This document shows positions 12,190 through 18,100 of a stretch of DNA of 64,000 nt, in pieces; position 1 is the first letter of the stretch; each line of letters begins with the position of its first letter. The DNA is from Macrostomum lignano (taxonomy: Eukaryota). The notes below the pieces were generated by a model that did not search any database, was not told the DNA's origin, and saw nothing but the letters and a program-made list of their open reading frames with translations. The translations under genes were made by a program, and so were the position numbers. Location of the stretch: NCBI GenBank assembly GCA_002269645.1, contig NIVC01003080.1, forward strand, positions 5,553 to 69,552, in the 5' to 3' direction.

Positions 12190-15100
12190 TCATTTGACCC
12201 CGGCATGCCGCACAATGGCCATCGAGGACAGGCAGTTGAAAGCGATGTGGCCGCCGCTGGTGGACAGGATGCAGCCGAACAGCGGACGGTGCCGTCGACC
12301 CTCGCCGCTTCCTTCGCGCCTCTGCCGATCCCGCTGGTCCCGGATGGAATCCATCAGCTGCCAGGGGAAGTGGCCGGTGCCGTACACGATCTGCTCAGCC
12401 CGCCAGCCGCCGGCTCCGGAGCTGAACGGCTCCAGGCTGACCGCCTTTTGAGAGTCGCGCACCTCCTCAGCTAGCAGGGTGATGAGGCGCAGGATGCTGT
12501 GCCTCTCGCGATGCATCAGGCAGATAGTGGAGCTCTGCACAACCGAGCGCAGCGTGCCCAGGTAGTCCAGGCGCCGCTCCGCAGTTTGCTGGCTGCCCAG
12601 GTGGCCGGGCCGTCGGGGAAAATGAGCGGCCAGGTAGGCTCGGATTTTTCCCAGCTGCAACTCCGGATCCGGGAAGTCGATGAAGAAGCGGGAGCACATG
12701 TACTTCTCCAGGCTGGCCGGGTCGATGCCAGCGGCCGGCCGGTAGCCCTCGGCCAGCAGGCGGCAGTACTTGAGCAGGCCGCCACCGCGAATCTCCTCGG
12801 GATTCCTGGTGCAGATCTCCCGACTGGCCAGGTGGCTAACAGCCTCGGCGAAGCTGCCCGACACCGACTCGGCCAGAACGCGCCGATGTTTCGTTTCGTC
12901 GACTCCCTCTTCGCCGATAGATTCGAGCACAATCTGGAAGCTGTCAACGGTGAACTCGAACTGGCGTCGCATTCGGTCGACAAATTTCAGTTCGACCATG
13001 GCCACGCAGTCGGCGTCTTCTCGACCGTCATCGGCCTGGTGAAACTGGTCGTCCTCGTCGCAACCACCCAGACTGATGAGGGACCAGCGGTCGGATTCGA
13101 GAACTCGGACCAGCTTGCGGATGTACGAATCCATGGACACCTGCTGCAGCTGCCGCTCGCCCTCAGGAAGGTAGGTGCGCAGGCTGTCCAACACGGCGGA
13201 CTTGATTTTGTCCAGGGTGGCCGGCGCGCTGAGGTCCACGCTGAACAGCAGGTCCACGTCATTGTAGCACTGGTCCGGCTGACCGCCTGGTGGGGAGAGG
13301 GGGGAGAGGGTCCGGCTGGAGTCTCAATGGTGTGATAATCTCAAACTGACAGGTGTGATCATCTCAATCTGAATAGTGTGATAATCTCAATCTGAATAGT
13401 GTGATAATCTCAATCTGAATAGTGTGATAATCTCAATCTGACTGGTGTGATAATCTCAATCTGACTAGTGTGATAATCTCAATCTGACTGGTGTGATAAT
13501 CTCAATCTGACTAGTGTGATAATCTCAAACTGACAGGTGTGATAATCTCAATCTGACTAGTGTGATAATCTCAATCTGAATAGTGTGATAATCTCAATCT
13601 GAATAGTGTGATAATCTCAAACTGACAGGTGTGATAATCTCAATCTGACTAGTGTGATAATCTCAATCTGACAGGTGTGATAATCTCAATCTGAATAGTG
13701 TGATAATCTCAATCTGAATAGTGTGATAATCTCAATCTGACTAGTGTGATAATCTTAATCTGAATAGTGTGATAATCTCAATCTGACTGTGATAATCTCA
13801 ATCTGAATGGTGTGATAATCTCAATCTGAATAGTGTGATAATCTTAATCTGAATAGTGTGATAATCTCAATCTGACTGTGATAATCTCAATCTGAATGGT
13901 GTGATAATCTCAATCTGAATAGTGTGATAATCTTAAACTGACAGGTGTGATCATCTCAATCTGAATAGTGTGATAATCTCAATCTGACTGGTGTGATAAT
14001 CTCAATCTGACTAGTGTGATAATCTCAAACTGACAGGTGTGATAATCTCAATCTGACTAGTGTGATAATCTCAATCTGACAGGTGTGATAATCTCAATCT
14101 GAATAGTGTGATAATCTCAATCTGAATAGTGTGATAATCTCAATCTGACTAGTGTGATAATCTTAATCTGAATAGTGTGATAATCTCAATCTGACTGTGA
14201 TAATCTCAATCTGAATGGTGTGATAATCTCAATCTGAATAGTGTGATAATCTTAAACTGACAGGTGTGATCATCTCAATCTGACTAGTGTGATAATCTCA
14301 ATCTGAATAGTGTGATAATCTCAATCTGACTGGTGTGATAATCTCAATCTGACTAGTGTGATAATCTCAATCTGACTAGCGTGATAATCTCAATCTGACA
14401 AGTAGAAGGCATGAGGGGGCTTTTGGGACAAAATTTTTCACATCCTCCATAATCCCATTAAATCCATCCATATTATCCCTGACAGAATCAGAAAAAAGGG
14501 GGTCGCACTCGCTCACAAAACATCCTCCATAATCCCATTAAATCCATCCATATTATCCCTGACAGAATCAGAGCATAACAGGTGTCCTACTGTTATGCTC
14601 TGAGGGTTTATGCTCTGAGCATAACAGCTCCAAATCCACCCATAACATTTCTAAAACAATCAGAAAAATAATCTGCATTCTTCTCCCCACATTCAATCCG
14701 CAACGTGCTACCACATCCCTAAGACTTTAAATCATCAGCGCAAGGTCCTTACCCATTGAAAAAATATAAATAATTTTATTATTCATTAGTAAGAATTATA
14801 TATTTATTAACAGTTGCACAGCTGATAGGATATGTATCAACTATTACAAGATTATCAAAAATGGTAGAAAAAACAGACACTATGTAGGATCTGAGTTAGA
14901 ATTCTTCAACAACATACAGAGCCAGCCTAGCGTTCCTTTGAGCCAGCAGCTAGATTCTCTAACGCCGTTAGAATTTTCTATGTGAAAATTTGGTGTGCCC
15001 AAGCTTATCTTGCGGGAAACTTTTCACATAGAAAATTCTAACGGCGTTAGAAAATTTCTACCCCCCCTCTATTTAACCATACAGAGCCAGCCTAGCGTTC

Positions 15101-18100
15101 CTTTGAGCCAGCAGCTAGATTCTCTAACGCGTTAGAATTTTCTATGTGAAAATTTGGTGTGCCCAAGCTTATCTTGCGGGAAACTTTTCACATAGAAATT
15201 TCTAACAGCGTTAGAATTTAAAACCCACCGACTGAGTTGCACACAGTACTGAGAAAATTGCTACCCTCCTCTACTTAACTAATCGGCTGTCTCCAGTTGT
15301 TGAATCTTCTCTTTGAAATTCTAACGCGTTAGAAAAATTCTAAATGAACTGAATTTAAAAATTACACAACTTTCCACGCAGGATCACTGGCCAAAATTTC
15401 TTCTAGAAACTTCATCTTAGAGTTTAGTTCCCTAATTGGCATTGACACCTGTCTCAAGCCTGGGTAGGTAACAGACAGTTTGTACAGACGAATGTACAAA
15501 TAGCCAGTTGATTCCTGGATGTTTACATTTTTACACAAATGGGCGAACCGCACTTTAACATCTTGTCCAAAGTTCTCGTTGCGATAAGTTTTTAGCAGCC
15601 GCCCAACTTCGAGAATCCAATGTAGACCTCCAATTTGAGTCTTCTTGTATTTTGCTAGAGCCGCCTTCACCCTAGTGATGATGTTCTGCTCGCCAGATGG
15701 AAGCTGGTGATCAACAGCGTCCATCAGCTGATCAGCTAGTGTTACGCGGGATGCGTACAACTTCTCCCTGAATATCTGCAGATCCGCCATCTTCTTCTGC
15801 AGAGCCGCCGCCTTCTTCTCTTCGCTACTCACATTTTGCGCTTCATTCGCTGCGGCGATATCATCAGGGGCCATGGCGAAAAACTCGATTGGTAGGTCGC
15901 CAGTTTCTAGACCGAAAAAGGTGGTTAGTTCCTCTCTTCTTCTTGCTTGTAGATGTGACGGAATATCCTGTAAAACTCTTTGTAGCATGGCACAAAGGCC
16001 TTGCTTATCTGTCAAATGAAGATTCCACTCGACTTCCATTTTCTAAATCTTCTTGTCTTCTAATCTTCTAGTTTGGCGGACTATTTCTTAGATCACTTTC
16101 AGCGTGCTTAAGTTCCTGCAGTCGTCGTTTCTCAGTCGCAGTTGATGGCATATGCGGGGAGAATCAACCCGAGTGTTTCTGCATTTGCTTAAATACAGCT
16201 ATACAGCTAGAAAATTCCAGAAAATTCTAGACTGTACAATCTTGGAGTCAAGCAGGGAAAAACAATCGATATAGCTCAGTGTACGATAGAGCATGAGGCG
16301 TGAGACTTCTCTGTACACAGAGCATAGCGCGAGGTGAGGAGTATGAAGGAGAAGGGCATGGTGGAAAGAGAGATTGTAACCGAAACCAGTGTGCTCAAGA
16401 CTGTACACTTGTGTGGAGAGAAGAGAAGCGAAGGCCAGAAGGCCAGAAAACTTAACTCTTCTCCCAAACAGCCGCTAATCCAGCTGAATTTTCTTGCTTG
16501 AATCATTCTACTCTCTCAACCCCCAGCTCTTTCAGCAGTCTTCCTAATTCTTTACTTGGCGTGTGCAACACAAAGCCCGCCCCCAAACAACCGCCGACCC
16601 CCAACCCCAGCTTTTTCTTACCAAAAATAACCGCCTTGACTAATTTCCGAGCAATCGACTCACGAAATCCGCTTGAAGCCCCTATATTGTCTAGTCTCTT
16701 AAGCATTTCTTTGTCCCAGCGATTCTTCTCCTCAGGAAAATCTCTATATTTAACATCGTGCCACATGCAGACAGAGTCTAGCTCGTTCACAGGCTCATGC
16801 CCAGGATGTGGATTATTGTTTTTATCTAACTGTATTTCAAGTGGATTCAAAGGCCCGCAATATTTATAGCCGGGAAGTGTCCAGCCTTTGTTTGGATGAG
16901 GAAGCTTTTCTATCAGTCCATGTGAATCTATTTTACCACCAGAGCGCTGCATTATTTTATTTAAAATTTTCTTTTTAAAAAAAATGACAGATCAGAAACT
17001 TAAAAAACTCTACTACAGCGACAAAGGATTCTTTGTAGGCAAAAATGCCGTTAGTAAACTCATGGAGCTGAGTAAGGAGCCAAAAGCTACAGTAGAAAAA
17101 TGGCTCTCTAAGCAGGCTGTCTTTCAAGTCTATTTCCCACCAGTAAAATTTGAAAGGCCCCATTTCAGTATTTATAAACCTAATGAAGCGCACCAAGCAG
17201 ATCTTTTGTTTCTCCCCAACGACTCAGGCTACAAGTATGCTCTTACAATTATTGACATTGCTTCCAGATATAAGGAAGCTCGCCCACTCAAGACGAAGAA
17301 GTCAGAGGTTGTTGCCAGCGCACTGCAAGATATTTATAAAAACTCTCCGCTCACATACCCCCAAATCTTTATGACCGACCCGGGTAAGGAATTCATGGGT
17401 GTAGTGAAATCCCTTATGGAAAAGAAAAACACAGAGATTCGCTATGGCAGAACAAACTTGCACAGAGACCAGGCTTTTGTGGAAAGATTCAATCTAACTC
17501 TAGCCAAGAGACTATTCACTAAGCAGACAGCGCAAGAACTCAAACTGAGTGCGGGGCAGTACTATACCAAGTGGACAGAAAGACTCCCCACTGTTATAGA
17601 GCAACTGAACAATGAAGTCACACGCATGACTGGATTGAAACCATCCCATGCAATTAAACAAGACACTGTCGAACTTAAGGCATCTCATAGAACAGACAAC
17701 AACACGACAACCCCACACAACACACACAACACAAAGCACACCTCGAACTACCCTAAGCTTCCAGGAGTTGAATCACCATACATACTGACAAACTCTGAGT
17801 TTCTACGCTTTTTATATCTACCTGGAGAGCTAGAGAAAGACACCAAAAGAAGAGCTACAGATCCATACTTCAGCCTTGATGTACATAAAATAGACAGACA
17901 TTTTACCTCCGACTCCGGTGACTATTACTTTTTATCTCAGGCCTTTAACCCTAAATCCCCCACACGGTCATTCACTAGAGCTGAACTCCTAGTGATACCA
18001 GCTGACACAGAAATTAATTAAAATATTAAAATAAAAAATGACAAAGATTGAAACCAGAACCATCAATAAACTCAATAAAATCATTGAATCAAAGAAACCA

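Follow-up and report, generated by a model that had tools for sequence, protein, structure and literature searches.

A nested palindrome array beside the left terminus of a Macrostomum lignano Maverick as a candidate operator for the predicted dimer encoded next to it

We analysed a 64,000-nt stretch of the flatworm Macrostomum lignano (contig NIVC01003080.1, positions 5,553 to 69,552; hereafter the window), in which a Maverick/Polinton element carries, just inward of its left terminal inverted repeat (TIR), an array of five short palindromes nested in larger inverted repeats. The array lies directly behind a gene for an orphan protein of 225 residues. The reading that we favour, tentatively and at somewhat less than even confidence, is that it forms the cognate operator array for a dimer encoded beside it, with the 225-aa protein as the candidate binder. 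The original prediction, made from the sequence, had already proposed an iterated dimer-binding site array; this idea gained a candidate binder, a predicted homodimer with ParB/DUF3102-like features, while the array itself appears to belong to a minority of family copies.

Architecture of the palindrome array

Tandem Repeats Finder (TRF) reported a tandem unit of period 164 (1.8 copies at 14913–15216, 97% matches), with 53 identical bases between the copies at spacing 165 and 87 at spacing 164, which bears out the predicted duplication at about 165 bp. Copy 1 folds into a stem with perfect arms at 14958–14988 and 15021–15051; the perfect pairing had been foreseen, whereas the arms measure 31 bp around a 32-nt loop and not 30 bp around about 31 nt. 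This is the longest perfect stem of the window when loops of up to 100 nt are allowed, and the arms of copy 2 carry mismatches. The array holds five TCTAAC-N2/3-GTTAGA sites (Table 1), separated by 79, 85.5, 78.5 and 118.5 bp, so that the predicted count of five within about 400 bp held and the predicted single-nucleotide spacer gave way to one of 2–3 nt. The half-sites are unchanged in 5 of 5 sites and the spacer and A/T flanks are variable; core and flanks together form imperfect palindromes of about 25–34 bp. No other site occurs in the window even when 2 mismatches are allowed, all full sites and half-sites are confined to 14958–15334, and the unit has no second copy within the window.

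The array begins 136 bp inward of the point where the left TIR similarity ends (14777) and lies 557–932 bp from the terminus. In the right subterminal region (27500–29700) we found no inverted pairs of at least 14 bp, confirming that the array stands at one end only and outside the TIR. On the other side, 29 bp separate the end of site 5 from the stop codon of the 225-aa gene.

The arrangement of the sites points to a single origin. They amount to one inverted pair, tandemly duplicated, together with a decayed right arm that carries site 5 and a half-site remnant at 14890–14901. Between the two units, 3 of 140 body positions are different, compared to 4 of 25 in the tails (Fisher p 0.011), and unit 2 holds an extra 39 bp (15217–15255) flanked by AGAA microhomologies. 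A weak outer inverted repeat pairs about 14881–14927 with 15285–15345 (17 of 500 shuffles score equally well), and inspection by eye revealed no target-site duplication (TSD) around a unit. Because the five sites are copies by descent, the statistics speak for repetition and not for five independent selections: none of 300 dinucleotide shuffles of the element contained even one site, a palindrome with 6-bp arms recurred at most twice in 100 shuffles compared to the five occurrences observed, and the units folded as DNA with z scores of −11.1 and −8.3.

The neighbouring gene and its predicted protein

The 225-aa reading frame is intact, and 224 of its 225 residues are the same as in the BOX15_Mlig026570 records of M. 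lignano, a cluster of 7 members under 13 GenBank accessions; Mlig gene annotation is described as transcript-based (PMC5730564; this and the other papers cited here are represented by partial text). The nearest canonical AATAAA hexamers downstream of the gene lie at 14808 and 14780, with the array in between. Upstream of the gene stand a TATA-like box and a four-pentamer heat-shock element (HSE; Table 1); such an HSE arose in 1 of 300 shuffles, and it matches the canonical definition of three alternating nGAAn pentamers (PMC12801592). The only other three-pentamer match of the region, at 15401–15413, lies inside the 3′ end of the open reading frame (ORF), about 70 bp from site 5; the remaining matches begin at 16210 and 16215, and 14913–15340 holds none.

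A HMMER search of 1.84 billion representatives returned, besides the cluster of the protein itself, only P0008, which is 31% identical. We obtained no tblastn match in phages, a PDB sequence search gave only CheY (E 0.39), and neither Pfam nor PHROGs has a family for the protein. In an atlas search, the first match of P0008 residues 105–220 was a DUF3102 cluster (0.93, 169 features; 8 of 30 matches), and the leading matches of the whole window protein were all unnamed clusters. The C-terminal half aligned with 17 cyanobacterial DUF3102 domains in hhalign (probability 50.8, P 1.6e-4, 78 columns); of 100 shuffles by column none attained this score, and of 100 by block one did. A structural model built from two sequences (predicted local distance difference test, pLDDT, 68) had the Spo0J DNA-binding domain as its top match among 48,161 chains (Z 6.5, root-mean-square deviation 3.3, 88 residues aligned), followed by Raf1 N-domains at ranks 2–4, with ParB-parS at 5.0, KorB-operator at 4.8 and SopB at 4.0. 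Among 864 Foldseek candidates, ParB/Spo0J chains took ranks 1–3 (Z 6.7, 6.3 and 5.3), and the next unrelated chain scored 4.4. These comparisons suggest a weak resemblance of the C-terminal half to DUF3102 and to the ParB/Spo0J/KorB DNA-binding domain; residues 1–100 were modelled as helices only.

Modelling also supports homodimerisation of the 225-aa protein, with a homodimer score of 0.72 compared to 0.01 for the best of 3 controls, contacts at least 89% concordant between runs, and pLDDT of at least 74. Among microbial test cases, 21 of 30 solved homodimers passed the mark applied and none of 23 single chains did; among eukaryotic ones, 17 of 29 homodimers passed (7 of 16 from animals; 1 of 7 that lack an older relative) and none of 30 single chains.

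Sibling copies of the element

For the sibling comparison, contigs from 4 of 24 runs (X2, X5, X11 and X19) were aligned to 14705–18100; contig depth is not a copy number, and what it says of siblings is indicative. Array, ORF and promoter showed like depth in 4 of 4 runs, several-fold under the integrase (single-contig depths of block and integrase: 149 vs 1002 in X5, 20.7 vs 118 in X11, and 6–8 vs 37 in X19), and the block thus seems to travel together. The contig depths suggest that a minority of family copies carry array and gene, which would make the two an accessory block. Loose ends at 16513–16597 lead into other sequences left of the phospholipase A2 (PLA2)-like gene of the element, where accessory left arms seem to be exchanged within the family. 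Many differing loose ends left of this gene were also seen at 16400–16600 in all four runs, and loose ends in X2 suggest that the HSE and TATA-like arrangement persists in diverged subfamilies.

The original prediction had named two outcomes as fatal to it, namely that the unit is a dispersed host miniature inverted-repeat transposable element (MITE) or that sibling copies lack it. Depth over the unit did not rise above that of its flanks in any of the 4 runs (contigs only, at 85% identity or more), so the unit is not a high-copy host MITE as far as contigs show, and palindrome-bearing versions are present in sibling contigs. The main X2 contig over copy 1 (14839–15017, depth 1409 of 1880) is without the C at 14965; site 1 is therefore as a rule identical to site 3, and the perfect arm either belongs to a few copies, by template-switch correction, or is an assembly error. 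In a minor subfamily, 84–87% identical in the ORF, site 1 has the spacer GGC, the layout is different (X2 joint of 14995 to 15299), and a site-bearing arm is retained near the ORF end. In an X5 contig of depth 17.8, the arm with its leader is joined to the ORF end in the opposite orientation, 63 nt showing one difference. One X11 contig spans the unit junction, indicating that this assembly is not alone in having the duplication; the bin at this junction was shallow in X2 (126) and deep in X5 (275). Two of the runs, perhaps of RNA, lack cover at 14819–14932, and X19 also at 16187–16414; their contigs end at different places, and we give these gaps no weight.

Proposed function of the array

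We propose that a subset of the Maverick family carries an accessory left-arm cassette, running from an HSE/TATA promoter through the 225-aa gene and the array to the TIR. The 225-aa protein would dimerise, and its ParB/KorB-like helical domain would bind the 14–15-bp palindrome TCTAAC-N2/3-GTTAGA as double-stranded DNA. Inverted and tandem duplication would have multiplied the sites, letting several dimers load next to the terminus, and heat may induce the gene through the HSE. The outcome of binding would most likely be transcriptional control of the terminal region, by repression or activation, with an episome tether as the bolder option. The opposite orientation seen in one X5 contig is expected under such binding, because a double-stranded site is orientation-free.

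Several points weigh against the operator reading. The support from inverted orientation comes from one contig in one run, and a change from a 2-bp to a 3-bp spacer alters half-site geometry, of which many dimers are intolerant. A plain operator array would have no need of the long arms or of the conserved leader, and 0 of 83 related Polinton loci (see below) has a second gene-plus-array pair. As to the protein, the alignment behind the model consists of two sequences; all Z scores are below 8, a range that possibly reflects just a common helical arrangement; and the single-sequence model (pLDDT 42.5) yielded generic bundles, with no ParB chain in its 50 rows. Foldseek returned nothing at E ≤ 0.001 in PDB or BFVD, and under a DUF3102 hidden Markov model built here P0008 scored only 6.6 bits, compared to about 1 bit for the Mlig026570 proteins.

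The wider question is how Mavericks control their genes, awaken and survive outside the chromosome. If the array is indeed the operator of its neighbour, cis-regulation in Mavericks would become open to direct test through a small, defined pair of protein and site with a heat-shock promoter, in M. lignano, the only flatworm for which transgenesis and heat-shock reporters are available; the pair would also provide the first site for a DUF3102-like protein. Under the rival explanations, the array would be a modest structured 3′ untranslated region (3′ UTR) or a repeat by-product.

Alternative explanations

The units may instead act as RNA, either as 3′-UTR hairpins that set the 3′ end or stability of the transcript or as a Dicer/Drosha source of small RNA, which we regard as unlikely. 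Such a role is consistent with their position between the stop codon (15362) and the AATAAA hexamers on the same strand, with gene models taken from a transcript-based annotation (PMC5730564), with an RNA-type fold of the minus strand at −157 kcal/mol (z −9.6), and with stems of about 35–45 bp, the size of a pre-miRNA or endo-siRNA precursor. The best Rfam E-values all came from hairpin and miRNA models, yet 0 of 20 matches reached the gathering score (best 47.4 of 100 bits); the structured RNA once offered as a second option has thus kept its strong folding on both strands and found no Rfam family. That both strands fold about equally well speaks against an RNA, as do the internal palindromes, which would compete with the long stem and be useless in a pre-miRNA, and the inverted position of the unit relative to the gene in one sibling contig. 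A VA-like Pol III RNA was ruled out by T4+ runs on both strands (4 and 7) and by the lack of a B box.

Alternatively, the array may be an enhancer for a host factor, and this seems to us quite improbable. A host dimer, or heat-shock factor on the two-pentamer GAA-nn-TTC flanks, would drive the cassette or couple it to stress, and the neighbouring protein would not be the binder. Four TAGAA-nn-TTCTA flanks are present in the array, none elsewhere in the window and none in 300 shuffles; the same GAA/TTC words compose the HSE upstream of the 225-aa gene, and long terminal repeat (LTR) elements of M. lignano are heat-induced in dependence on HSEs (PMC12801592). In addition, a TAACRYGTTA core recurs 12 times in L135, an unrelated contig that is non-coding and animal-like (see below). 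However, the array holds no canonical three-pentamer HSE under the definition of the same paper (PMC12801592), the GAA-TTC spacing of the flanks slips while the non-HSE core is fixed, and the pentamer pairs are out of phase across the core. Among the literature matches listed, the palindrome is not named as a factor site. Two further factor readings were rejected: the MYB/Ovo word CCGTTA occurs in 2 of 5 sites, and the MCB/KilA-N word ACGCGT likewise in 2 of 5, with no KilA-N match.

A third explanation, to which we give no more credit than to the host enhancer, is that the array is functionless, a short palindrome that multiplied through fold-back and slippage as the element replicated by strand displacement, or a small mobile passenger. 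All five sites derive from one, the 39-bp loss between AGAA microhomologies and the decayed sites at both ends indicate turnover, and the base that perfects copy 1 resembles a template-switch correction or an error; moreover, subfamily layouts differ, the window is repeat-rich, and similar cores are iterated in settings that resemble MITEs or repetitive extragenic palindromic (REP) elements (L135 and G003, see below). In contrast, a passenger would not readily explain why half-sites stay fixed while flanks drift, why unit bodies are more alike than tails, or why a subfamily whose ORF has diverged by about 15% keeps a near-identical arm; the unit is also no deeper than its flanks, has no further copy in the window and shows no TSD by eye.

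Less probable again is a bolder form of the operator reading, in which the Maverick would have acquired a bacterial-plasmid-like ParB-type dimer and a centromere-like array under heat-shock control, so as to hold, tether or silence the excised genome in stem or germ cells. This would be a solution like that of EBNA1 and oriP, made from a prokaryotic fold.

A terminal cis-signal for the life cycle, whether an auxiliary origin or a one-ended packaging signal comparable to the A-repeats that adjoin the left inverted terminal repeat of adenovirus, is very hard to credit: it would fit the location at one end only, 557–932 bp from the terminus, and the A32-type ATPase and adenain-type protease encoded by the element, but the 83 related loci are without a like array and the block seems to occur in a minority of copies while TIR, PLA2 and integrase are deep and the loose ends at 16513–16597 represent other left arms, a distribution that speaks against a core function as origin or packaging signal. 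On inspection by eye alone, Helitron/Helentron ends and mimivirus-type hairpin polyadenylation were set aside.

Comparison with known systems

The predicted helical domain of the 225-aa protein, itself a predicted dimer, matches the ParB/Spo0J/KorB/SopB group best (Z 4.0–6.7). Plasmid centromeres lie directly behind the parB gene, and the array sites likewise lie right behind their gene, the nearest 29 bp from the stop. The KorB operator, TTTAGC-G-GCTAAA within the OB oligonucleotide, is a palindrome with an odd centre (PMC11790492), of similar length to the array site, which shares the odd centre. The ParB systems differ in site sequence; here, the host element is eukaryotic and nuclear, the sites are nested in long inverted repeats, and the likeness is weak, the top structural matches to the ParB-type helix-turn-helix domain reaching Z 6.5–6.7 (below 8) with no family match at the sequence level. 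Pfam detected no ParB N-terminal CTPase domain in the protein, in line with the all-helical model of residues 1–100, and no ParA among 25 stretches of the element, where only an A32/FtsK-type ATPase was found; without CTPase domain and ParA this is not a ParABS system. The likeness to DUF3102 (PF11300) of bacteria and phages extends over 78 columns of the C-terminal half and lies below Pfam detection, and the literature matches listed contain no description of DUF3102 function.

In baculovirus homologous regions (hrs), each repeated unit contains an imperfect palindrome of about 24–30 bp to which a virus-encoded dimer binds (PMC2834656; PMC4535591), and the array units also each hold an imperfect palindrome. 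The likeness to hrs that was first suggested goes no further: hrs are interspersed at several places, whereas the array occupies a single locus with its units folded into long inverted pairs, and Pfam gave no IE1-family match in the 25 element stretches. A comparable layout is found in a nuclear DNA virus, Epstein-Barr virus, where the dyad symmetry of oriP nests palindromic EBNA1 dimer sites in a larger inverted repeat; its protein fold and site are unrelated to those described here, and the array spacing is 79–119 bp. The HSE-bearing LTR retrotransposons of M. lignano carry a canonical HSE and a TATA-like box upstream of an element gene, as seen here (PMC12801592), and a heat-inducible Maverick gene would parallel them; the differences are that the gene here is a Maverick accessory gene and that the array itself is without a canonical HSE. 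The array falls outside the baculovirus hr, ParABS, HSE and miRNA families, although by analogy it would work like a viral or plasmid operator array of the hr/IE1 or parS/ParB kind.

Related loci and the palindrome elsewhere

The search for related loci covered 83 integrase-anchored Polintons (480 kb), consisting of the best 80 of 414 metagenome matches and 3 viral loci. None of the 83 has a homolog of the 225-aa protein, a nested array or a four-pentamer HSE, and the test is thin, most loci being short, with a TIR pair only in L029 and L072 among those of at least 5 kb. The sole palindrome cluster among them, in L036, turned out to be a triplicated gene start. Searching with the integrase sequence alone yielded no locus in viral contigs, and the 225-aa alignment had no match in metagenomes.

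A motif search of prokaryotic and viral collections found a 14–17-bp core iterated in a phage, in a myxobacterial metagenome-assembled genome (MAG) and in an animal-like contig. The 60.8-kb phage (G001; L132-L133, IMGVR_UViG_3300045962_000005) carries 8 copies of TTCTAAC-NN-GTTAGAA at 11613–24501, compared to 0 for the reversed control; several directly precede ribosome-binding sites within a single gene block, and the sites are likely a regulon. The Kofleriaceae MAG (G003; L108-L110, L104) has 7 full sites in the genome and 0 in the control, in intergenic REP/MITE-like elements with paired TTCTAAC-NNN-GTTAGAA sites and inverted flanking half-sites. The third case, L135 (G006:C141), shows 12 TAACRYGTTA-like palindromes at 5974–6304, with nested inverted repeats and 20-bp inverted ends, on a non-coding animal-like contig that is probable host contamination in a Sedimenticola MAG. 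No DUF3102 or 225-aa-like gene accompanies the cores in phage, MAG or animal-like contig, and no longer similarity surrounds the shared cores (blastn, covering 20 viral loci). As the cores were found by motif search and have no matching gene, we take them as convergent use of an operator-like palindrome.

In the literature seen, neither the array nor the 225-aa gene is described; subscription papers, Repbase and supplements may hold more. The partial text of papers on Mavericks, adintoviruses and Polinton-like viruses (PMC8502044, PMC8097293, PMC11296320) has 0 occurrences of 'palindrom'.

The host element and its surroundings

The host element is a Maverick/Polinton by its TIRs, TSD and core genes. 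It spans 15,654 bp within a 23-bp minisatellite, has the termini AGTAGA...TCTACT and the 6-bp TSD CTGACA (14395–14400 and 30055–30060), and the inner part of its TIR pair is imperfect; TIRs and TSD are as described for this class (PMC8097293). The vertebrate end motif, (AGT)2 or (AG)3, is absent from the ends, which is no argument against Maverick identity because the motif was described for vertebrate elements (PMC8097293) and this one is from an invertebrate. A Pfam scan of 26 translated stretches, 25 of them from the Maverick, matched rve integrase (PF00665, 2e-8), protein-primed PolB (PF03175, 4e-4, a fragment), adenain-type protease (PF00770, 4e-5), A32-type ATPase (PF04665, 6e-4, a fragment) and the parvovirus-type PLA2-like gene (Table 1); several core genes of this copy are broken up. 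Four stretches at 27257–29340, scanned with Pfam alone, gave no capsid match.

Table 1. Positions in the window of the array, the 225-aa gene and neighbouring features (a point marks features without strand)
Feature	Positions	Strand	Remarks
Maverick/Polinton	14401–30054	.	TIRs, TSD, Pfam
Left TSD CTGACA	14395–14400	+	repeated at 30055–30060
Left TIR	14401–14777	+	partner at about 29599–30054
Two AATAAA hexamers, 14780–14775 and 14808–14803	14775–14808	-	putative poly(A) role
Decayed sixth site, right half GTTAGAA retained	14890–14901	+	sequence, sibling contigs; siblings have C at 14894, nearer to a site
Unit 1, 165 bp: 45-bp leader, hairpin, 25-bp tail	14913–15077	.	
Unit 1 hairpin, 31-bp perfect arms, 32-nt loop	14958–15051	.	
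Site 1, TCTAAC-GCC-GTTAGA	14958–14972	.	siblings: spacer GC (main contig), GGC (minor)
Site 2, TCTAAC-GGC-GTTAGA	15037–15051	.	
Unit 2, about 202 bp	15078–15279	.	
Site 3, TCTAAC-GC-GTTAGA	15123–15136	.	
Site 4, TCTAAC-AGC-GTTAGA	15201–15215	.	probable CpG to CpA change relative to site 2
Site 5, TCTAAC-GC-GTTAGA	15320–15333	.	decayed right arm before it
225-aa orphan ORF, intact	15362–16039	-	candidate array binder
TATA-like TATTTAA upstream of 225-aa gene	16189–16195	-	putative role
Four-pentamer HSE (GAA-nn-TTC-nn-GAA-nn-TTC)	16209–16228	.	171 bp upstream of ATG
PLA2-like gene, parvovirus-type	16503–16952	-	PF08398, E 4.6e-14
rve integrase	16984–18021	+	PF00665, E 2.1e-8

Within the left TIR, a 14–15-bp word (TCAGAGCATAACAG and its complement) occurs in three alternating copies at 14568–14627 and forms small hairpins; these TCAGAGCATAACAG words are only partly retained in the right TIR. 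Past the integrase, at 18118–18492, a stretch matches adenovirus protein X (mu) in Pfam (E 3.5e-7) and is separate from the PLA2 gene, unlike described adintoviruses, in which pX is fused with PLA2. The host flanks contain three unrelated MITE-like inverted repeats (4868–5044, 44143–44298 and 47628–47896), none with the array motif, and a minus-strand retroelement ORF of 627 aa at 34148–36031, with reverse transcriptase and RNase H.

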